Positions 10,846 through 59,892 of a stretch of DNA of 64,000 nt are shown piece after piece. Position numbers and translations under genes: made by a program. The stretch covers positions 81,923 through 145,922 of the forward strand of contig JAOPTQ010000046.1 of NCBI GenBank assembly GCA_051531915.1, in the 5' to 3' direction. How positions within the stretch are numbered: the stretch's first letter is position 1; every line of letters begins with the position of its first letter. The notes under the pieces are model-generated. The model was not told the DNA's origin and searched no databases. It saw only the letters and a list, made by a program, of their open reading frames with translations. The stretch is from Colwellia sp. Its GTDB lineage: Bacteria > Pseudomonadota > Gammaproteobacteria > Enterobacterales > Alteromonadaceae.

Positions 10846-10869
10846 TTTTGAAGGTAAACAATAATTAAA

Positions 10870-11002
10870 GTGCCTATGTAGATAACTCAGGAGTTTATTG
10901 TAAACGTCATCTTCGAAGTCTCTGATCGATGTATTGTTTTTTAGGCACCGGATCCCCGATTAAAAAACCACGGGGATGACGAACCTGGGCCAAGTGCGTA
11001 GT
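10870..11002 (+). repeat. MITE-like palindromic element, copy 1
   Basis: GTGCCTATGTAGATAACTCAGG...GTCATCTTCGAAG...CCCCGATTAAAAAACCACGGGGATGACGAACCTGGG...GTGCGTAG. Alignable with the copies at 11077, 25031 and 59729. Confidence 0.8.
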
Positions 11003-11076
11003 CATTAAAATTAAATAAAGTCTCCTTAATTACCAACTAAGGAGGCTTTTTAATTACTAACACTATATATTATTTC

Positions 11077-11258
11077 ATGCCTATGTAGATAACTCAGGCA
11101 TCCGTTGTAATCATCATCTTCGAGGTGCTTTTGCCTATAGGACGTAGGTACTTTGCTTTGGAACTACAAAACTGAATCGACGATCTAGGTGTTTTTATAC
11201 TTAGATTCCCGTTTAAGACACCACGGGAATGACGAATCTGAGTGAAGTGCATAGGCAC
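11077..11258 (+). repeat. MITE-like palindromic element, copy 2 (longest, ~45-nt internal insertion)
   Basis: ATGCCTATGTAGATAACTCAGG...ATCTTCGAGG...CTAGGTGTTTTTATACTTAGATTCCCGTTTAAGACACCACGGGAATGACGAATCTGAGTGAAGTGCATAGGCAC. Confidence 0.85.
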
Positions 11259-22803: not shown

Positions 22804-23769
22804 TTAACAACCGCTAACGATCTCTTTAGTGACGATGCCACTCATTGCAAGCGCTTCATTTATTGGTAATTCGTTATTGCCCGCCAATAAGTAAATCACT
22901 TTTTTTCCTTGTTGCGCCAACTCTAATACATGTTGATAATTAATTAATATATTTGAGCTAATACATTGAGGAAATTTTTCTGCATCACGGCGTATATATT
23001 CTATCAAATTGACATTGACAGCCTCATCGTAAAAAACTGCGTCGGTAAACTGCATAGCTCTGTGGGCGTTCAATGTTAAGTTGTCTGGGTTGCCATCTTG
23101 GGTATGAATAAAGACAATCTCCCCTGAAGGTGGTGCTATTTCTTGTTTAATACTGGCAATTAATTGTTGCTCAGCGTGTTGTTGATTACCGTCAAGAATC
23201 GCTTGACCAATAGGGCCTCTTAAGGTGTTCTCCCAAAAACTTCGTCTGTTACGTAAGCCTTTTACCCGCGCTTTAACATGATCGCGAAATTTATGAGAAA
23301 AGCGGGCCAGTTTTCCATAGTCTTGCGGCAGCATTTTTTCAATTTGCTCGCGTAACATACGAATAAGAATAGGTGAACTTCCTGAACTAGATAGCGCAAT
23401 AATCATTGGGCTTCTATCAATAATTGCCGGCGTAATATAAGTACAAAGCTCAGGCTGATCTACCACGTTGACTAAAATATTAAGCGCCGTTGCTTCAGTC
23501 GATATCTTTTTATTCACTGTTATGTTATCGGTTGCGGCAATAACTAAGGTGGCATTAGCTAATTGACCCGTTTGGTAGTTATGTTGTTGCCATGTTAATT
23601 GATGAACCGAAATTAAGCGCGCCACGGTATTACAGGTATGCTCTGCTATTACCGTAATATTAGTTGTTGATTTTAATAGTAATTCAATTTTTCGCGCGGC
23701 AACATCGCCACCACCAACAACAATAGCCGATATTTTGTTTGCATCGAGAAAAACAGGAAAATATTTCAT
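22804..23769 (-). CDS. CysG-like precorrin-2 dehydrogenase/sirohydrochlorin ferrochelatase with a truncated, degenerate methylase remnant
   Basis: The N-terminal 200 aa align to E. coli CysG (VVGGGDVAARKIELLL, ATDNITVNKKIS, NVVDQPELCTYITPAIIDRSPMIIALSSSGSSPILIRMLREQIE). The C-terminal ~110 aa align to the first half of the SUMT domain only, with GAGPGD replaced by HTQDGNPD and GGDPFIFG replaced by AGNNELPI. Confidence 0.8.
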   Translation of the reverse strand: MKYFPVFLDANKISAIVVGGGDVAARKIELLLKSTTNITVIAEHTCNTVARLISVHQLTWQQHNYQTGQLANATLVIAATDNITVNKKISTEATALNILVNVVDQPELCTYITPAIIDRSPMIIALSSSGSSPILIRMLREQIEKMLPQDYGKLARFSHKFRDHVKARVKGLRNRRSFWENTLRGPIGQAILDGNQQHAEQQLIASIKQEIAPPSGEIVFIHTQDGNPDNLTLNAHRAMQFTDAVFYDEAVNVNLIEYIRRDAEKFPQCISSNILINYQHVLELAQQGKKVIYLLAGNNELPINEALAMSGIVTKEIVSGC

Positions 23770-23997
23770 GGCATCGCCTTATATAGGAATAATATACCCA
23801 AACCACTCCTAGCTGAATCCTGCATCTTCAAGTGAAACGGGTATATAATGCTATCACGATCAAATACCTAAAACCTCGTTAATTGCTTATCTCTTGTTAG
23901 GTTATTTAATTAATTTGTTCCTACTTTAACTTCAATGAATGGTAAACTATCAAGTTATATTATTTTGTTTATAGTAAACATTGATAGAGAATGAAAA

Positions 23998-24903
23998 ATG
24001 CCTTGGATACAACTTAGATTAAGTGCAGATGAAGATAGCGCTGAAAAATACAGTGATTGGTTATCGGCTTGCGGTGCTCAAGCGGTTACTTTTATTGACG
24101 CGCAAGACACGCCTATTTATGAACCACTACCGGGCGATGAGGTGATTTATTGGTCAAATACCGTGGTAATGGGCTTATATGATGCCAGTCATGATATGGA
24201 TAAAGTGATTAGTTATTTACAAGGCATTCACCCTGACAAAGCGAATATGCACTACAAGTTAGAACAATTAGAAGATAAAGATTGGGAACGTGAGTGGATG
24301 GATAACTTTCATCCGATGAAATTTGGCGAACGTTTGTGGGTTTGTCCAAGTTGGCGTGAAGTGCCAGATCCTACCGCGGTTAATGTTATGTTAGATCCCG
24401 GACTTGCTTTTGGTACAGGTACACACCCCACAACAGCCTTGTGTTTAACTTGGCTTGATGGTTTAGATTTACAAGGTAAAACCGTGGTTGATTTTGGTTG
24501 CGGATCTGGAATTTTATCTTTAGCCGCGCTTAAATTAGGCGCGAAAAAAGTTATTGGTATTGATATTGACCCGCAAGCATTACAGGCCAGTTTAGCGAAT
24601 GCTAAGCGTAATAAGGTTGATGACCGATTGGCGTTATATTTACCGAAAGATTTACCACAACATTTATCACCAGAAAAATCAGCAATGAAAGCAGATGTTG
24701 TGGTGGCTAATATTTTAGCAGGGCCACTGCGTGAGTTAGCACCTACTATTATGGAATTTGTCGGTGATAAAGGCTTGTTAGCATTATCAGGTGTGTTAGA
24801 AGAGCAAGCGCAAACGTTACAAACACTGTATGGTCAATGGTGCGATATGAAGCCTGTTACGGTGCAAGAAGAATGGGTTCGTTTGAATGGACAACGGAAG
24901 TAG
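23998..24903 (+). CDS. prmA: Ribosomal protein L11 methyltransferase
   Basis: MPWIQLRL..., [33 protein letters not shown]. Confidence 0.95.
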
Positions 24904-25030
24904 TTTTTAGCCATGTTATTGTTAAATGTTGCCGAATAAACCCTTCTTTAGGGCTCTACACAAACGCCCATACTTGTGAAGCTCACTTTTATCACTGCTA
25001 TTAACTATTTTTATATTAATCAATCTATTA

Positions 25031-25168
25031 CATGCCTATTTAGATGGATCAGGAGTCAGTTGTAATCGTCATCTTCGAGATGTGTTAATCGAAGATCTAG
25101 GTGTTTTTATACTTAGCTTCCCGATTAAAACACCACGGGAATGACTAACCAGAGCGATGCGCGATGCA
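25031..25168 (+). repeat. MITE-like palindromic element, copy 3
   Basis: CATGCCTATTTAGATGGATCAGG...GTCATCTTCGAGATGTGTTAATCGAAGATCTAGGTGTTTTTATACTTAGCTTCCCGATTAAAACACCACGGGAATGAC... Confidence 0.8.
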
Positions 25169-25237
25169 TTATCATTTAAGTGATAGTATTTTGGCACGAG
25201 AGACTCGTATTTTATAAAATAAAAATTGACGCGGCTG

Positions 25238-26059
25238 TTATAACACTAGCGTCAATATTGGTTTTTCCTTAAGCGGAAATTCTTGCTTATCTAATGCGGC
25301 TAACTTATCTAATATCGCTTGGTTTGGTTTCATCTTCTCGCTGGGCGGTATCACTAAAGTGGTGTGCATAAATAATTCAGCATCAATTAAATCAACCAAC
25401 TCGATATGTTCAGCGCGCATAGTTTCTATGGGTAACACTTTAGCTTGATACAAAATCACTTGATGATCAGCAGGGTAGTTTTCAAGTAATAAATTGACTA
25501 ATACTTGCCGGTAAGCTTTTCCTGTTGAGAACTTAGCAATTGATTTATCGCCAGCTAAGCCGACTTGCCATAAAATAAGGTGAGCTGAAGGGTCAACATT
25601 TCGTTTATAAAACATAAATTGACTTGCTTCATAATGCGCACAGCCGGTAGTACCAGGGTCAATGCCTAAATCAGCAAATAAACAATCTTCTGCAGAAATA
25701 CCGGGTTCCATGTGAGCATTAATGTTTTCAAGTTTTGCTTGCTTAATGGCCTTATGTGCTACACAGGCAAAGACACCGGGATGACCGTAAAAAGCCCCTA
25801 CCACTTTTTTACCGGCACGTACTTCAGTTAATAAAGCTTCTACCATTTCTCGGTAAGTAATATTTCTATTTTTACCTTCTTGATAATAGCATTGTAAACT
25901 ACGCACATCGTGATGCATTTCATCAATCCAACGCTCAGTAATACCACTAGACATTAAAGAAAAAACAACATCAGCTTGCTCGATGTGACTTTTTGCTATT
26001 GGGCTTATATGGGCACCTAAGGTCATGCCGGTACCAACACAAACTAAACTTGCTGACAT
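25238..26059 (-). CDS. Tetrapyrrole-methylase-fold SAM methyltransferase of the borosin (OphMA/SonM-like) peptide backbone alpha-N-methyltransferase type
   Basis: SLVCVGTGM, ADVVFSL, YYQEGKNRNITYREMVE, KVVGAFYGHPGVFACVAH, MEPGISAEDCLFADLGIDPG, HYEASQFMF, LILWQVG and LVIPPSEK follow the block order I recall for SonM and the OphMA methyltransferase domain. It lacks the GAGPGD and GGDP motifs of SUMT. Confidence 0.7.
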   Translation of the reverse strand: MSASLVCVGTGMTLGAHISPIAKSHIEQADVVFSLMSSGITERWIDEMHHDVRSLQCYYQEGKNRNITYREMVEALLTEVRAGKKVVGAFYGHPGVFACVAHKAIKQAKLENINAHMEPGISAEDCLFADLGIDPGTTGCAHYEASQFMFYKRNVDPSAHLILWQVGLAGDKSIAKFSTGKAYRQVLVNLLLENYPADHQVILYQAKVLPIETMRAEHIELVDLIDAELFMHTTLVIPPSEKMKPNQAILDKLAALDKQEFPLKEKPILTLVL

Positions 26060-26113
26060 GTAATGTAGTCCTTGTTATCAATTTGCTATGATTTTCTATT
26101 ACGCAAGTACTTA

Positions 26114-26686
26114 TTACTCGTTAATAAGTACTTGCGTAATGATTTGTTGTTGCCATTGTTCTTTGCGGCAGTATTCAAAATAATCGGTTGACTCTTTTGA
26201 TTGTAATTCGGGATTAAAGACAAAACCAAGCTTTTTTATAAAACGTTTTGTCGCCAAATTCTTCTTGGCATAAAAAGCATTAATTTGTTTCACCAATAAA
26301 TAATGAAAAGCATACTCTATTAACGCACCCATTGCCTCTTCTGGAAAAAGCTGACCATTGGCTGTTGTTAATAACATAATACCAATGTCAGCTGCATTAA
26401 TCTCAGGGGTATGAAAGTGTTCATTTTTAGTATTGCGCCAATGCAATGCTTGAATGCCAATAGGTTTATTATCAGATAAAGAAATTATTACCCAAGTTAT
26501 TATACTGGGTTTTGGTTTTTTCATTATTGTTAAGGTGCGATTAAAAGCCGCTTTTGCCTTTTTTTCACTAAGCGTGCAACCAATACTTCGCATCACTTTA
26601 TTATCAGTATAAAGGCTGACATATAATGCTTCATCTTGTTTGGTTAAGGGTTTAATTAATAATCGTTCAGTGGTAAAGCGGTGCAT
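26114..26686 (-). CDS. GNAT (RimJ/RimL-type, Acetyltransf_3-like) N-acetyltransferase
   Basis: The N-terminal TERLLIKPLTKQD is typical of the RimJ/RimL subfamily. C-terminal AFYAKKNLATKRFIKKLGF. It lies 54 nt upstream of the methyltransferase on the same strand. Confidence 0.7.
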   Translation of the reverse strand: MHRFTTERLLIKPLTKQDEALYVSLYTDNKVMRSIGCTLSEKKAKAAFNRTLTIMKKPKPSIITWVIISLSDNKPIGIQALHWRNTKNEHFHTPEINAADIGIMLLTTANGQLFPEEAMGALIEYAFHYLLVKQINAFYAKKNLATKRFIKKLGFVFNPELQSKESTDYFEYCRKEQWQQQIITQVLINE

Positions 26687-27004
26687 ATTATGTATTCTTC
26701 ATTATTTCTCTGGGGTACTTTGGTAACATACACTAAATGTCTGATAAAAAGTGGCATAAACCACATTAATTATTTCAATAGCGATGTATCAAACGGTTAA
26801 TGAATTGTACGAAAACTAGTCGCATTAAAGATTTGGCAAAAGTCAATATCAAAAACATGAAAAAAATCAAAGTTTGTTCAAATTCTATGCTTTTCAAGTG
26901 CTCAAAAAACACGTAAACTGAGCGCCCTTTTAGCAGGTAGCTTAAAAAATAATCAGTGTTAACGTAGTCAGTATTAAAGTAATCAGTTTAAAAAAGTAAA
27001 TATC

Positions 27005-28018
27005 TTGAAGATAGGCCCATACCAATTAACTAGTAATGTTCTTCTTGCTCCAATGGCGGGAATAACCGATCAGCCTTTTCGAGAGGTCTGTTGTCGATTA
27101 GGTGCAGGATTAGCGGTATCTGAAATGCTTTCGTCAAATCCGAAAGTGTGGCATACCCAAAAATCTAAGCTAAGAATGCTGCATAGTGAAAATGCGGGTA
27201 TTCGCAGCGTACAAATTGCGGGTAGTTGTCCAGATGAACTTGCTTTTGCAGCGAGGGTTAATGCTGAAAATGGTGCTCAAATTATTGATATCAATATGGG
27301 CTGCCCAGCAAAAAAGGTAAATAAAAAATTAGCGGGTTCTGCTTTATTAAGAGAACCAACACAGGTTGAACGTATTGTTCGATCGGTGGTTGAGTCGGTA
27401 AATATTCCGGTAACGTTAAAAATTCGCACTGGTTGGTGTGAAAATACCCGTAACGGTATTGAAATAGCAAAAATTGCTCAAGAAAACGGTATTGCCTCAT
27501 TAGCAGTGCATGGTCGAACTCGTAATGACTTTTATAAAGGCAATGCTGAGTACGATACCATTAAAGCAATTAAAAAAGCGGTTTCAATCCCAGTGGTAGC
27601 AAATGGTGATATTACGTCGGTAGAAAAAGCTGAACAGGTTTTAAGTTATACCGGCGTTGACGCTATTATGATAGGTAGAGGCGCTCAAGGACGTCCTTGG
27701 ATTTTTCGAGAAATAAATCATTTCTTAAAAACGGGAACTCAACTACCAATTATCTCATTGGATGAGACTCGTTCAATATTAGTTGAACATATAAAGGTAT
27801 TACACCAGTTTTATGGTGATTTTATGGGTGTTCGCATCGCCCGAAAACATGTGTCTTGGTATATAAATTCACTTGTTTTAGCAGAAAAAGGTTTTAGTCA
27901 GTTTTTTACACTTGACCAAGGTAAAGCCTTTAGGGCTATTTTTAATGGTTTATCGTCAACAAGTGAACAGCTTGACGCATTAAACTTTTATTTTGATGAT
28001 TTAAACTCAGTGAATTAA
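27005..28018 (+). CDS. dusB: tRNA-dihydrouridine synthase B
   Basis: A TTG start gives MKIGPYQL...APMAGITDQPFR, DINMGCPAKKV, HGRTR. Collinear with E. coli DusB. Confidence 0.95.
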   Translation: MKIGPYQLTSNVLLAPMAGITDQPFREVCCRLGAGLAVSEMLSSNPKVWHTQKSKLRMLHSENAGIRSVQIAGSCPDELAFAARVNAENGAQIIDINMGCPAKKVNKKLAGSALLREPTQVERIVRSVVESVNIPVTLKIRTGWCENTRNGIEIAKIAQENGIASLAVHGRTRNDFYKGNAEYDTIKAIKKAVSIPVVANGDITSVEKAEQVLSYTGVDAIMIGRGAQGRPWIFREINHFLKTGTQLPIISLDETRSILVEHIKVLHQFYGDFMGVRIARKHVSWYINSLVLAEKGFSQFFTLDQGKAFRAIFNGLSSTSEQLDALNFYFDDLNSVN

Positions 28019-28088: not shown

Positions 28089-28376
28089 ATGTTCGAACAA
28101 AATATTTCTTCTCCATTTATCACTGGCGATATTCAAACTCAAACAAAAACTTCACCGTTGCGTAGCCAAGCTAAAATAGCTATCAGTAACTATTTATCTC
28201 AACTTAATGGTAATGATGTTGATGATATGTATGACCTTGTACTGAGTGAAATTGAAGCGCCAATGTTAGAAGAGGTAATGATGTATACTCGCGGTAATCA
28301 AACCCGAGCAGCTAATTTACTAGGTATTAATCGTGGTACTTTACGTAAAAAATTAAAAAAATATGGTATGAACTAA
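28089..28376 (+). CDS. fis: DNA-binding protein Fis
   Basis: C-terminal [27 protein letters not shown]. Confidence 0.95.
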
Positions 28377-34129: not shown

Positions 34130-34417
34130 CCCTGCGAAGCTAGAAACCCGATAGGCGGAAAGAAGCCTTATCACCTCGACTTAGGGGTAGGTGTTTCTCC
34201 TGAAATATCTGTATTTCCGCCACCCATGGCGGTCAAGCCATATGGGGCTTACCTAATAAAAAGCTAATAGGGAGCTAGTGCAGTAATAACTGAGGAAGCC
34301 TGGCATCTAAACTTACTTGTAGGTAAGTGGCTTAAATTCAAGAATAAACTCAAAGTTTAATGTTGGTGTGAGGTGGCAGGTGCACCTGTAATAGGGGAGC
34401 CAGTGTCTAAAAAGCAA
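34130..34417. other. ORF-free, GC-richer, hairpin-dense segment (candidate structured RNA/leader or unclassified repeat); strand unknown
   Basis: GGCGGAAA (34154-61) can pair with TTTCCGCC (34214-21), which overlaps the hairpin CCGCCA-ccca-TGGCGG (34217-32). Nested AAGCC..CTTAC-ttgtag-GTAAG.GGCTT (~34297-34332). Direct repeat TAATAGGGAGCTAGTG / TAATAGGGGAGCCAGTG (34266, 34390). Confidence 0.35.
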
Positions 34418-34488
34418 TAGATCTTCGAATAGAAACATCGAAGATGAAGTTTACAACAAAAACCTGATTTATCGACATAGGCATGTCA
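34418..34488 (-). repeat. Partial MITE-like element (one half only)
   Basis: TAGATCTTCGAATAGAAACATCGAAGATGAAGTTTACAAC...CTGATTTATCGACATAGGCATG aligns with the right half of the copy at 59729..59868. Confidence 0.7.
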
Positions 34489-56683: not shown

Positions 56684-59600
56684 ATGATGATGGTTGATAA
56701 TATGTGGTTGATTTTATCAGCGCTATTAGTTTTTTGTATGCAGGCAGGTTTTCTTTGTTTAGAAAGCGGAAAAACCCGTAGTAAAAATAACATTAATGTT
56801 GCTGCTAAAAATGTTATTGATTTCATTGTTTCTATTTCTATTTTTTGGTTTGTCGGCTTTGGTTTAATGTTTGGCACATCAATATCTGGTTTGTTCGGCA
56901 GTAGCTTTTTCCTTTTTGGTGATACTCAATCCCCTTCAAATATTACCTTTTTCTTTTTTCAAATGATGTTTTGTGGCACCGCCGCTACTTTGATGTCTGG
57001 CGCTGTTGCTGAGCGTATGAGTTTTTTCGGTTATGTTGCTTTAACTGTTATTTTGAGTGCTGTTATTTATCCTATTGCTGGCCATTGGGCATGGGGAGGT
57101 ATGTTTCAAGCGGTGCATAGTGGTTGGTTAGAGCTCAAAGGATTTGTTGATTTTGCAGGCTCTACCGTTGTCCATTCTGTTGGTGGTTGGGTTGCTCTAG
57201 TTGCGGTGACCATTATAGGGCCACGTTACAAGCGTTTTGATAAAAGCTATAAATTCCCATCAGGTAGCAGCCTGCCCATGGCGAGTCTCGGCGTTTTTCT
57301 TATTTGGTTTGGTTGGTTTGGTTTTAATGCGGGCAGTACTTTAGCTTTTAATGATCAAGTACCACTTATTTTGTTGAATACCAGTTTAGCTGCAGCATGG
57401 GGAGGATTAGCTGTTACGCTTGTTCATTATATCGATAAAAAATACATGAACATTAGCTTTTGTCTTAATGGCATCTTAGCTGGCTTGGTTGGTATTACCG
57501 CCTCTTGTCATGCCGTTTCTCCAACAGAAGCTGTTGTTATTGGTGCGGTGTCAGGTGTAATTATGTATTACGGTGACTCATTATTGAAAAAATTTCATAT
57601 TGATGATGCTTTATCTGTGGTTCCCGTACATTTATTTGCCGGTATCTGGGGAACTTTAGCGGTTGCTTTTTTTGGTGACACAACCATTCTCGCTACCGGG
57701 CTCAGTTTCTCTCAGCAATTGCAGATACAACTGTTAGGTATTGTTAGCATAGGATTATATTGCACAACCGTTGGTTTTATACTTTTTAAGCTAGTTAACA
57801 AAATTTTACCGTTGCGGGTTTCTTTAGCCGATGAAGTAAGAGGACTAAATGTTACTGAACATCATGCGAGTAATGAATTGGTGAATTTACTTTCTGAAAT
57901 GGAGTTTCAGCAAAGCCAAGGTGATTTTACTTCCTCGGTAGAAGAAGAGCCTTTTACTGAAGTTGGTCAAATAGCTCAAAAATATAATCAAGTTATTGCA
58001 CGTGTCAGTCAAGAAATGAGTGAACGCGATAAAGCCATTAAATCTTTTCAAATGAGTGAAAAACGAAAAAGTGCTATTTTAGATTCCTCAATGGACAGTA
58101 TTGTCAGTATTGACATCAAAGGTAAAATTATTGAGTTTAACCCTGCGGCCGAGCGTATTTTTGGCGTACCCAAAAAGAATATGTTAGGAAAATATTTTTT
58201 TAATTTATTTATGTTAGAGCAAGATAAACAAGAAGCTTTTGAGAGCTTAAAACACTCATTTTCTGTTGCCAATACGCTAGTACTTAACAGAAGATCAACC
58301 ATTGAAATACAGCGTATTTCAGGAGAGGTTTTTCCTGCGGAAATTACTATTACTAGCGCTCAATTGGGTAATAAATATACCATTGAATTTACTTTACATA
58401 TACGTGACGTTGCTCGTAAAGTTAAATTACAATCACGGTTACATTTTTTGGCTTATAAAGATCCCTTAACTGAACTATCGAATCGAACACACTTAATGAG
58501 AGAGCTTAACGCCGCTGTTAAGCAATCAAAAAAACAATTATTTAGTATTGCGTTGTACTTTTTAGATTTAGATAAATTTAAAAAAATTAATGATACTTTA
58601 GGTCATAAAGCGGGAGATCAGTTGTTATGTGAGGTGGCCAATCGTTTAACCTTTTTAGCTAGATCTACCGATGTGATTGCTCGTTGGGGTGGCGATGAAT
58701 TTGTATTAGTGATGACAGGTAAGCTAACGCAGTCATTGATTATAAAAAAAGCTGAAAATATGCTGCAAGAAATGCGAAAACCAATAAAAATACTAGAGCA
58801 GTTATATAACATTCCTACCAGTATTGGCGTGGCTGTTTCTACTAATGGTGAAGTTGAATCTGACGCTTTATTACAGCAAGCTGATATTGCCATGTATAAA
58901 GCAAAAGATAGAGGTCGAGATAATTATCAAATTTATACCACGGAAATGGGTAGAGATGCAGCGAGAGTATTAAGCTATGAGCAAGAGATTAAACAAGCTA
59001 TTATTGATGAGCAGTTTTATTTAGACTATCAGCCTAAGGTAAATGATAAGCAGGAAATTATGGGTTTAGAAGCCTTAATTCGTTGGTCTCATCCTCAGAG
59101 AGGAAAAATTTCCCCTGCCGAGTTTATTCCTGTTGCAGAAGAAAGCCACTTAATTGTTGATATTGGTAGTTGGGTAATAACCTCTGTTTTAAAGCAACTA
59201 AAAGAGTGGATAGAAGCAGGCATTGAAGTGAAACCTGTTTCAGTCAATATTTCCGGTCATCAATTAATGGCTAACGACTTCATTGCTTTTATTGAAGACT
59301 CATTGGCTAAATATCATATTAGTGGCAAATTGCTTGAAATTGAAATTACCGAAGGCGTATTAATTAATGAAATTGAGCGCTGCATTGAAGTATTGGCTGT
59401 GCTGAAGTCATTAGGTATCCAAATTTCTATCGATGATTTTGGTACAGGCTATTCATCGCTAAATTATTTACGTCGTTTACCTTTAAATATTTTAAAGATT
59501 GACCGTGCTTTTGTTCGAGAATGTAACACTATTGATGAAGATAGAGAAATTTGTGCGGCAATTATTAACTTGGCTCAAGGTATGCGTTTATCAGTGATTG

Positions 59601-59722
59601 CAGAAGGGGTTGAAACTAAAGCCCAAATTGATACGTTACTGAGTCTAGGTTGTAATCACTTTCAAGGCTTTTATTATTATAAACCTATGAGCAAACAAAA
59701 AATTGCCGATCTTTTAATATAA
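56684..59722 (+). CDS. Ammonium transporter (Amt) domain fused to PAS-GGDEF-EAL
   Basis: The N-terminal ~400 aa is Amt-like ([48 protein letters not shown], about 11 TM helices). It is followed by PAS, [19 protein letters not shown] and [13 protein letters not shown]. Confidence 0.9.
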   Translation: [1012 protein letters not shown]

Positions 59723-59728
59723 AACTAC

Positions 59729-59868
59729 GTGCCTATGCACTTCACTCAGGTTCGTCATTCCCGTGGTGTCTTAAACGGGGATCTAAGTATAAAAACACCT
59801 AGATCTTCGATTAACACACCTCGAAGATGACGATTACAACTGATGTCTGAGTTATCTACATAGGCATG
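59729..59868 (-). repeat. MITE-like palindromic element, copy 4 (inverted orientation)
   Basis: GTGCCTATGCACTTCACTCAGGTTCGTCATTCCCGTGGTGTCTTAAACGGGGATCTAAGTATAAAAACACCTAGATCTTCGATTAACACACCTCGAAGATGACGATTACAAC...GAGTTATCTACATAGGCATG. Confidence 0.85.
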
Positions 59869-59892
59869 TAAAACTATTGTACACAGGAAACT

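Follow-up and report, generated by a model that had tools for sequence, protein, structure and literature searches.

A SonM-type borosin N-methyltransferase between prmA and dusB in Colwellia: a probable remnant of a split borosin cluster

Described borosin systems and the methyltransferase at this locus

The described system that serves as the main point of comparison is SonM/SonA, the type IV split borosin system of Shewanella oneidensis MR-1 (SO1478-SO1481; PDB 7LTC/7LTE; product, Shewanellamide A), whose BGC has the order SonM-SonA-GGDEF-efflux. Split borosin N-methyltransferases (NMTs) act in trans by nature, and in the SonM/SonA pair the binding domain provides most of the substrate affinity. 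Mutational roles have been published for the SonM active-site residues Y58, R67, Y71, and Y93. In a survey of more than 1600 pathways, Imani et al. found a GGDEF gene in 56% of split borosin BGCs and based borosin-specific HMMs on the NMT signature motifs YGHP and DCLFAD; they also reported that bacterial NMTs expressed alone show no detectable self-methylation. The fungal proteins OphMA and dbOphMA are fused borosins (types I-III), in which the homologous methyltransferase domain is continued by a clasp and a fused core.

We analyzed a 64-kb stretch of Colwellia DNA (the window) that contains an intact SonM-type methyltransferase ORF of 273 aa (MT; 25238-26059, minus strand; NCBI accession MGL1957349.1). 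When the PDB is searched with phmmer, MT matches SonM (7ltc_A) at E=7.7e-82 over residues 3-254, with 52% identity, and dbOphMA/OphMA at E of about 1e-46 over residues 3-265. All 25 PDB matches at E<=0.01 are borosin NMTs; there is no tetrapyrrole methylase (CobA/CysG) among them. MT does share the PF00590 fold (E=1.5e-17 in a profile search) with the uroporphyrinogen-III/precorrin C-methyltransferases CobA, CbiF, and the C-terminal domain of CysG. Unlike these enzymes, however, it has neither the GAGPGD nor the GGDP motif in its translation, and its scores against the tetrapyrrole NCBIfam equivalogs (19-24 bits) are far below the cut-offs of 163-391. The blocks listed in an earlier, sequence-only reading of this DNA are all present in the translation (SLVCVGTGM, KVVGAFYGHPGVFACVAH, MEPGISAEDCLFADLGIDPG, HYEASQFMF, LILWQVG, and LVIPP, with KPILTLVL in the tail), and both borosin signatures are there as well, in the contexts FYGHPGVF and AEDCLFADLG. 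Furthermore, all four active-site residues are kept; the equivalents of SonM Y58, R67, Y71, and Y93 are invariant in an alignment of MT with SonM and 22 homologues. As that reading had proposed, MT can be securely assigned by homology to the borosin alpha-N-methyltransferases (the SonM/OphMA clade of PF00590), with the corresponding predicted activity, and not to SUMT/CobA.

MT is a full-length homologue of SonM, a discrete enzyme of ~265 aa without clasp or core; it can be aligned with the 263-aa SonM chain from one end to the other and likewise carries no fused clasp or core. A tail of ~35 aa had been pointed out, but it is not a novelty of that length. The SonM alignment ends at residue 254, so that only about 19 residues extend past the aligned chain; the tail is ~12 residues longer than that of SonM and ends in LTLVL. 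With respect to OphMA, MT ends 8 residues past the aligned region, whereas OphMA runs ~140 residues further through its clasp and core. The same ...RP.LTLVL ending is common in our alignment to the Colwellia MTs that own SonA-like precursors. Because the tail is conserved in these precursor-bearing relatives, we read it as a clade feature, and predict that it is neither a hypervariable core nor a substitute for one.

The dusB-prmA site in this genome and its relatives

MT lies 54 nt downstream of a GNAT ORF of the RimJ/RimL type (26114-26686, minus strand; 190 aa; MGL1957350.1), and the pair is situated between prmA (23998-24903, plus strand; PF06325 E=1e-100, TIGR00406 322 bits) and dusB (27005-28018, plus strand; TIGR00737 401 bits), with fis following dusB (28089-28376, plus strand; NF001659 135 bits). 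The scores of PrmA, DusB, and Fis are all far over the curated cut-offs, and the coordinates confirm the pairing, gap, and placement that had been noted from the sequence. The GNAT matches PF13302 (E=1.2e-21); searches of the PDB (E<=0.01) and of NCBIfam give no match. It shares 48-50% identity with the GNATs encoded in two related clusters. A GNAT is found directly upstream of MT in 33 of 40 Colwellia-type loci, and the one here is the predicted orthologue of the acetyltransferase that holds this position in most related clusters. In this respect the locus differs from the four-gene S. oneidensis BGC as described. A variant chemistry coupled to the GNAT had been listed as one possible reading, but PF13302 partners are already published, in about 26% of the split borosin BGCs surveyed by Imani et al.

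In relatives the same site holds a larger cluster. In Colwellia relatives whose flanking sequence is long enough, the order is nearly always GNAT, MT, a SonA-like peptide of 81-96 aa, and a GGDEF gene, followed by prmA; a GNAT-MT-small ORF-GGDEF arrangement occurs at the dusB/prmA site in Colwellia sp. MT41, C. psychrerythraea, C. marinimaniae, C. demingiae, C. ponticola, and many MAGs. Just as in S. oneidensis, MT in these genomes is followed by a binding-domain precursor and a GGDEF gene. We found a SonA-like ORF in 72 of 73 non-redundant related loci and a downstream GGDEF gene in all 58 with enough downstream sequence. Among Colwellia-type loci whose flanks are long enough, 18 of 21 have dusB and prmA on either side, as against none of 24 more distant loci. 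The two nearest relatives (83-84% identical) both have a small ORF downstream of MT; in the 84% relative, the next gene, in the GGDEF position, runs off the contig end and has no Pfam call. When the PDB is searched with a profile of 29 small-ORF sequences, the seven best matches are all SonA chains, aligned over the binding domain at E=6e-5 to 2e-4; phmmer with one SonA-like peptide alone finds no SonA there. Past the binding domain, where SonA has its core, the precursors of the Colwellia clade carry a conserved Cys and an acidic PAEDDE tract instead. With their TP_methylase NMT, YGHP/DCLFAD signatures, PF13302, and GGDEF, the intact Colwellia clusters match the split borosin BGCs of Imani et al.

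This genus-wide, son-like cluster changes fast, with one to three SonA-GGDEF(-GNAT) modules. Five multi-module clusters have one MT and up to three modules, which lie up to about 8 kb away; pepsin-like proteases are optional, and MT, GNAT, or the precursor has been lost independently. In one related locus, L019, the MT stop is 78 nt from prmA with no MITE in between; sonA and GGDEF are lost and the MT frame is uninterrupted. In C. maritima (L046), MT is frameshifted and the GNAT absent, and the GNAT is missing in several other related lineages. This variation could help reveal the roles of bacterial borosins and their GGDEF partners. Comparison of the prmA-dusB junction across relatives bears out the inserted islet but not its description as an orphan, given the four-gene cluster found there throughout the genus. 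Judged by gene content, the islet corresponds to the Colwellia son-like cluster minus its SonA-like and GGDEF genes, and is not a new architecture.

The spacer between the methyltransferase and prmA

The slot taken up in relatives by the SonA-like gene and the ~600-aa GGDEF gene (about 2.1-2.5 kb) is here a spacer of 334 nt (24904-25237). A SonA-like profile, which is positive at 45 of 46 related loci, detects no precursor in the six-frame translation of the 64-kb window (best E=8.5), nor does tblastn with SonA-like proteins. In the spacer itself there is no tblastn or HMM match to the cluster-type GGDEF protein and no blastn match to, or remnant of, the sonA/GGDEF DNA of relatives. The only GGDEF-domain matches in the window, at 633-1196 and 58412-58945, belong to unrelated proteins. 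Thus, unlike the S. oneidensis BGC, this locus has no separately encoded precursor with a borosin binding domain beside the NMT and no ~600-aa GGDEF gene downstream of it; with no precursor there, it is an incomplete type IV split borosin cluster. Since the BGCs of Imani et al. include a precursor by definition, it stands as an incomplete or degenerate example of them.

That no precursor lies nearby had been proposed from the sequence, and this part of the claim stands; the accompanying statement that only ORFs of 8-33 codons are present does not, as the spacer ORFs reach 42, 45, and 55 codons. We rejected these three as precursors: none matches the SonA profile and none is conserved as coding sequence. 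Weak SonA-like tblastn matches at 58.0-58.1 kb were also set aside, lying as they do inside a 1012-aa Amt-PAS-GGDEF-EAL protein. On the other side of the pair, 26796-26960 (plus strand) is conserved DNA, probably regulatory, upstream of dusB-fis, with 75-85% DNA identity across 16 relatives; the 45-codon ORF, on the minus strand within it, was rejected as coding sequence, its frame being broken by stops in nearly all relatives.

The spacer contains a MITE copy (about 25031-25170, plus strand) with a degenerate 3' terminal repeat. The repeat reported at the prmA-side edge is real: it is 88% identical over 130 nt to a copy at 59742-59871. The window has at least five copies in all, some of them partial, as at 10855-11245 and 34389-34486, and the others are 72-90% identical to the one in the spacer. 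The best-preserved copy, at 59.8 kb, has a 24-nt terminal inverted repeat (79% complementary) and an 8-bp TAGTTTTA target duplication. Its short length, its copy number, the terminal inverted repeats, and the target duplication identify the family as a MITE, a non-autonomous DNA transposon. The copy lies 127 nt from prmA and 67 nt from the MT stop, and neither interval holds a sonA/GGDEF remnant; a MITE at the MT-prmA position is absent from all relatives compared.

Explanations for the missing precursor

We favor, with a probability of roughly 0.6, the explanation that a lineage-specific deletion has reduced a type IV split borosin cluster, of a known kind, to a remnant of two genes. The ancestral state would be a genus-level insertion between dusB and prmA with the order GNAT - SonM-type NMT - SonA-like precursor - GGDEF, where the precursor would consist of a five-helix borosin binding domain and a C-terminal core. 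In the intact cluster, a dimeric MT would dock on the binding domain and methylate backbone amides of the core stepwise in a SAM-dependent manner, as shown for SonM/SonA and expected here by homology. Acetylation of the peptide would probably be the task of the GNAT, and the GGDEF protein, whose gene is tightly linked, may couple the system to c-di-GMP signaling. A deletion would then have taken the precursor and GGDEF genes; the spacer would be its scar, which now carries the MITE. The decay of the cluster in L019, in C. maritima, and in the lineages that lack the GNAT supports this explanation.

The MT and GNAT reading frames are both full length, with no frameshift or internal stop, so either the loss was fairly recent or the genes are still used. 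MT has six private substitutions in highly conserved columns, all of them conservative. Its branch-specific N/S of 0.75 is at the top of the set, but it overlaps the values of intact-cluster relatives (0.62-0.64) and so gives no clear sign of relaxed selection; this lineage is a long branch in housekeeping genes too. Given that there is no substrate in cis, MT is most likely idle and decaying in this strain. The precursor and GGDEF genes were lost naturally in this strain and, as a separate event, in L019; it is improbable, in our estimate, that the intact pair has been kept after such a loss for a use free of a cis precursor, be it on another protein or on a substrate that is distant or divergent. 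Should MT-GNAT prove active on a different substrate, it would represent a natural case of a trans-acting or repurposed backbone methyltransferase and be of interest to peptide engineers.

The sequence-only reading had framed the locus as an orphan calling for a trans-encoded precursor, a self-substrate tail, GNAT-coupled chemistry, or a non-RiPP role; the 70 or more related loci point instead to a known cluster that has been depleted. A deletion remnant was not among its options. MT could still be in use, acting in trans on a SonA-like precursor whose gene, probably paired with a GGDEF gene, lies in another part of the genome outside the 64-kb window. Such an arrangement would suit an enzyme class that naturally acts in trans, and the two intact ORFs, the retained catalytic residues, and the conservative nature of the private changes are all consistent with it, as are the distant modules that accompany a single MT in the multi-module clusters and the MT frame that L019 keeps after losing sonA-GGDEF. 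On the other hand, no SonA-like ORF occurs across the 64 kb, and in a SonA-anchored metagenome scan all 45 loci were inside MT/GNAT/GGDEF clusters, with stand-alone precursors never seen and every locus with long flanks at the dusB-prmA site; the scan was queried with 8 close Colwellia peptides, and such cluster-derived patterns could miss a divergent copy. Because all 45 loci fall within clusters, we consider a trans precursor unlikely.

There is little chance that the gap is an artefact in which sonA-GGDEF lay between two near-identical MITE copies that were collapsed and skipped by the assembler. The MITE is exactly at the junction, which is spanned by the MAG contig only: of the Logan contigs from the same run (SRR21695763), one breaks off within the MITE, at 25110, and the one on the MT side stops at 25440, leaving the junction without an independent span. 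But the MITE shares a run of ~36 identical nt with the 59.8-kb copy, which accounts for the break, and with the other copies in the window just 72-90% identical, a collapse would need an unusually identical pair. The intervals on either side of the MITE, free of any sonA/GGDEF remnant, also argue against an artefact, and L019 has the MT-prmA adjacency without a MITE. We give still less weight to a role independent of any precursor, in which MT would methylate its own tail as a minimal fused borosin or work with the GNAT on a non-RiPP substrate. The hydrophobic KPILTLVL at the end of the tail and the retention of the GNAT-MT pair would fit such a role; the conservation of this tail where SonA-like precursors exist, the missing ~140 C-terminal residues of OphMA, the failure of bacterial NMTs alone to self-methylate detectably, and the affinity supplied by the binding domain in SonM/SonA all speak against it.

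With the deletion remnant as the preferred explanation, the locus has little discovery value: the enzyme family, the split architecture, and the GNAT/GGDEF partners have all been described before, and gene loss best accounts for the absent precursor. As a worked example, it shows why one should look at the same locus in relatives before invoking new chemistry for an 'orphan' RiPP tailoring enzyme.

We also looked for regulatory features. Rfam gives no credible match in 23.5-28.5 kb (two hits, both far under their gathering scores), and a promoter scan is not over shuffled expectation. A perfect 20-21 bp palindrome or hairpin (26097-26141) spans the GNAT stop codon and the GNAT-MT spacer and is specific to this strain; the 116-nt stretch that contains it has a folding energy of -31 kcal/mol, and the best 60-nt hairpins upstream of MT in 14 relatives range from -10 to -19 kcal/mol.

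A borosin-type methyltransferase between prmA and dusB

The methyltransferase (MT) ORF (25238-26059, minus strand; 273 aa; Pfam PF00590, E = 1.5e-17) is preceded, 54 nt upstream, by the end of the GNAT ORF (26114-26686, minus strand; 190 aa; PF13302, E = 1.2e-21). As the sequence-only reading had proposed, the pair sits between prmA (23998-24903, plus strand) and dusB (27005-28018, plus strand), with fis downstream of dusB; Pfam and NCBIfam confirm all three flanking families. These three genes are contiguous in E. coli K-12. The MT is identical to the NCBI Colwellia sp. MAG protein MGL1957349.1, encoded on a 164-kb contig, and the GNAT corresponds to MGL1957350.1.

In a search of all PDB chains, the best match of the MT is SonM, the N-methyltransferase of the Shewanella oneidensis type IV split borosin (7ltc_A, E = 7.7e-82; MT residues 3-254 align to residues 2-256), followed by dbOphMA, OphMA and MroMA (E 1e-42 to 1e-46). 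Indeed, all 25 matches at E ≤ 0.01 are borosin N-methyltransferases, with no tetrapyrrole methylase among them, and the NCBIfam equivalogs for precorrin methylases reach 19-24 bits where the cut-offs are 163-391. The MT is 52% identical to SonM, and the equivalents of Y58, R67, Y71 and Y93, residues whose mutation cripples SonM, are invariant in an alignment of the MT with 22 homologues. The motif blocks quoted in the sequence-only reading are all found in the MT translation, and the GAGPGD and GGDP blocks that it had reported missing are indeed absent. These results show that its borosin-type call was correct and refute the SUMT/CobA alternative; at the sequence level, assignment as a borosin-type N-methyltransferase is firmly supported. 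There are more than 7,600 homologues at E ≤ 1e-20, and a length of 273 aa is characteristic of those from Colwellia and Thalassotalea.

A perfect 20-21 bp palindrome (26097-26141) covers the stop codon of GNAT and the spacer between GNAT and MT; the GNAT C-terminus, ITQVLINE, is encoded in its left arm, and the 116-nt stretch that holds it folds at about -31 kcal/mol. Nothing like it occurs in 14 relatives, where the best 60-nt hairpin reaches -10 to -19 kcal/mol. An inverted duplication private to this strain, an element for RNA processing or stability, and a binding site for a protein are all possible explanations. Nearby, 22804-23769 (minus strand) encodes a 321-aa CysG-like protein with N-terminal dehydrogenase/ferrochelatase and dimerisation regions and a methylase domain cut to its first ~80 residues; because Colwellia relatives carry the same 321-322 aa form, the shortening is conserved and does not mark a strain-specific pseudogene.

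The cluster in relatives

In Colwellia sp. MT41 and one more Colwellia contig, the dusB/prmA interval holds GNAT, MT, a small ORF (85-94 aa) and a GGDEF protein (~600 aa), an order that Thalassotalea and Shewanella electrodiphila also have, elsewhere in the genome. Searching reference genomes with the MT added 41 loci; in every Colwellia locus that extends far enough, dusB and prmA enclose the cluster and the MT is followed by a GGDEF gene, the gap between MT and GGDEF nearly always being filled by a small ORF. Common to these ORFs are a helical region at the N-terminus, a conserved Cys, an acidic PAEDDE tract and a short tail that varies. Given that SonA chains are the top seven PDB matches of a 29-ORF profile (E = 6e-5 to 2e-4, over the borosin binding domain), we consider the ORFs SonA-like precursors.

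Among non-redundant loci with enough sequence, a SonA-like ORF is present in 72 of 73, a tally biased towards SonA because it includes loci found through SonA (L050-L094); the MT-anchored subset by itself gives 45/46, to which two further loci (L047, L049) add a small ORF called directly after the MT and a third (L048) is uninformative, ending ~170 nt past the MT stop. A GGDEF gene lies downstream of the MT in all 58. Among Colwellia-type loci the GNAT is directly upstream of the MT in 33 of 40, and dusB and prmA flank the cluster in 18 of 21 (0 of 24 more distant loci). The two nearest relatives of the MT (83-84% identical) both have the small ORF; in the 84% relative a further gene occupies the GGDEF position, but the contig stops within it and no Pfam family is called for that reason.

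The SonA-like peptides of Colwellia, Thalassotalea and Rheinheimera (L001-L049; alignments A1 and A3) share the SonA binding domain. Past it come a short hydrophobic stretch with a conserved Cys, a long PAEDDE-rich acidic tract and a short tail, in many of them ...VIGF or ...IVNG; this differs from the SonA core, DSSYQSYLVISHGNGD. In Thalassotalea, S. electrodiphila and the window's nearest Colwellia relatives (L004:3996-5303, L005:3619-5373, L047:388-1743, L048:1061-1576), the gene directly upstream of GNAT encodes a pepsin-like aspartic protease (PF00026), a candidate maturation protease that descriptions of the four-gene S. oneidensis son cluster do not include. Both nearest relatives of the MT have this gene, but only the 84% one has it at full length. 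Some Colwellia dusB-prmA clusters have 2-3 tandem SonA-like peptide - GGDEF - GNAT modules upstream of a single MT (L010, L015, L016, L018, L062, L074; e.g. L062:4147-11995). In those inspected, the SonA-like ORF lies only tens of nt upstream of the ~600-aa GGDEF gene, suggesting that peptide and cyclase form a functional pair.

The missing precursor

The SonA-like HMM, run unfiltered on every stop-to-stop segment in the 64-kb window, gave a best E of 8.5 (3.4 bits), and tblastn for SonA-like sequence was negative, in line with the earlier failure to see a precursor near the MT. Nothing in the 334-nt MT-prmA spacer resembles any relative's sonA or GGDEF at the DNA level, and a MITE copy fills ~140 nt of it. 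At least four more copies or fragments of this ~145-bp family lie in the window (59726-59870, minus strand; 10855-10998; 11071-11245, with a ~35-nt internal insertion; 34389-34486); the best preserved, at 59.8 kb, has TIRs of 24 nt and an 8-bp target duplication, TAGTTTTA. The ORFs of 42, 45 and 55 codons in the spacers around the two genes are not SonA-like; the 45-codon one, upstream of GNAT, is part of the conserved DNA ahead of dusB-fis, and stop codons break its frame in relatives. Weak matches of SonA-like peptides to a 1012-aa protein (56684-59722, plus strand) with an ammonium-transporter-like membrane domain and PAS, GGDEF and EAL regions are spurious, with no tie to the MT locus.

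Collapse of a repeat during assembly could have removed sonA and GGDEF, as the spacer MITE is spanned by the MAG contig only. Over 23997-25110 and 25440-27304 the window is matched at 100% by Logan contigs of SRR21695763, which confirm the dusB-GNAT-MT side and run from prmA through unique DNA into the MITE with no GGDEF 3' end. Collapse is unlikely, since the MITE copies are just 72-90% identical to each other and a Colwellia MAG contig (L019) independently lacks both genes. A precursor might still be encoded in trans, the analysis covering 64 kb and one MT being accompanied by up to three SonA-GGDEF(-GNAT) modules in some Colwellia clusters; however, all 45 loci of a SonA-anchored metagenome scan fall within such clusters and none stands alone. 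Other suggestions of the sequence-only reading fared less well. The proposed self-substrate tail, ...RP.LTLVL, is conserved in Colwellia enzymes that do have precursors; SonM aligns to MT residue 254, the clasp and core of OphMA have no counterpart in the MT, and bacterial NMTs expressed alone did not self-methylate. As for GNAT-coupled variant chemistry, PF13302 acetyltransferases are already published in ~26% of split borosin BGCs (GGDEF in 56%). Nothing was found to support a non-RiPP role.

Comparison of the locus in relatives is, as sequence evidence, decisive: the window locus is most likely a lineage-specific deletion within a published cluster type, to which it adds a degenerate example. 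Its "orphan" status is real but ordinary. In the SonM/SonA system, the dimeric SAM-dependent enzyme docks on the precursor's five-helix binding domain and methylates core backbone amides in the N-to-C-terminal direction; by homology, Colwellia-type clusters would work likewise, with the GNAT probably acetylating the peptide and the GGDEF partner probably tying the system to c-di-GMP. Deletion of the precursor and GGDEF genes would leave the window MT without a substrate in cis, most likely as an idle remnant.

Condition of the surviving genes

Both MT and GNAT are full-length. Private changes in the MT number 12 nonsynonymous and 16 synonymous, a ratio of 0.75; this is the highest of seven taxa, but two intact-cluster relatives come to 0.62-0.64, and for prmA and dusB, too, the window has the longest branch. 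Six private changes, all conservative, fall at columns at least 95% conserved in relatives (median 1; one intact-cluster relative has 7).

Elsewhere, L019 (L019:1-1924) has no sonA, GGDEF or MITE, its MT ending 78 nt from prmA; C. maritima MSW7 (L046:10001-10818) keeps sonA and GGDEF but has a frameshift that splits the MT and has no GNAT; and the GNAT is missing in several lineages. These different, independent decay states show that the cluster is dispensable.
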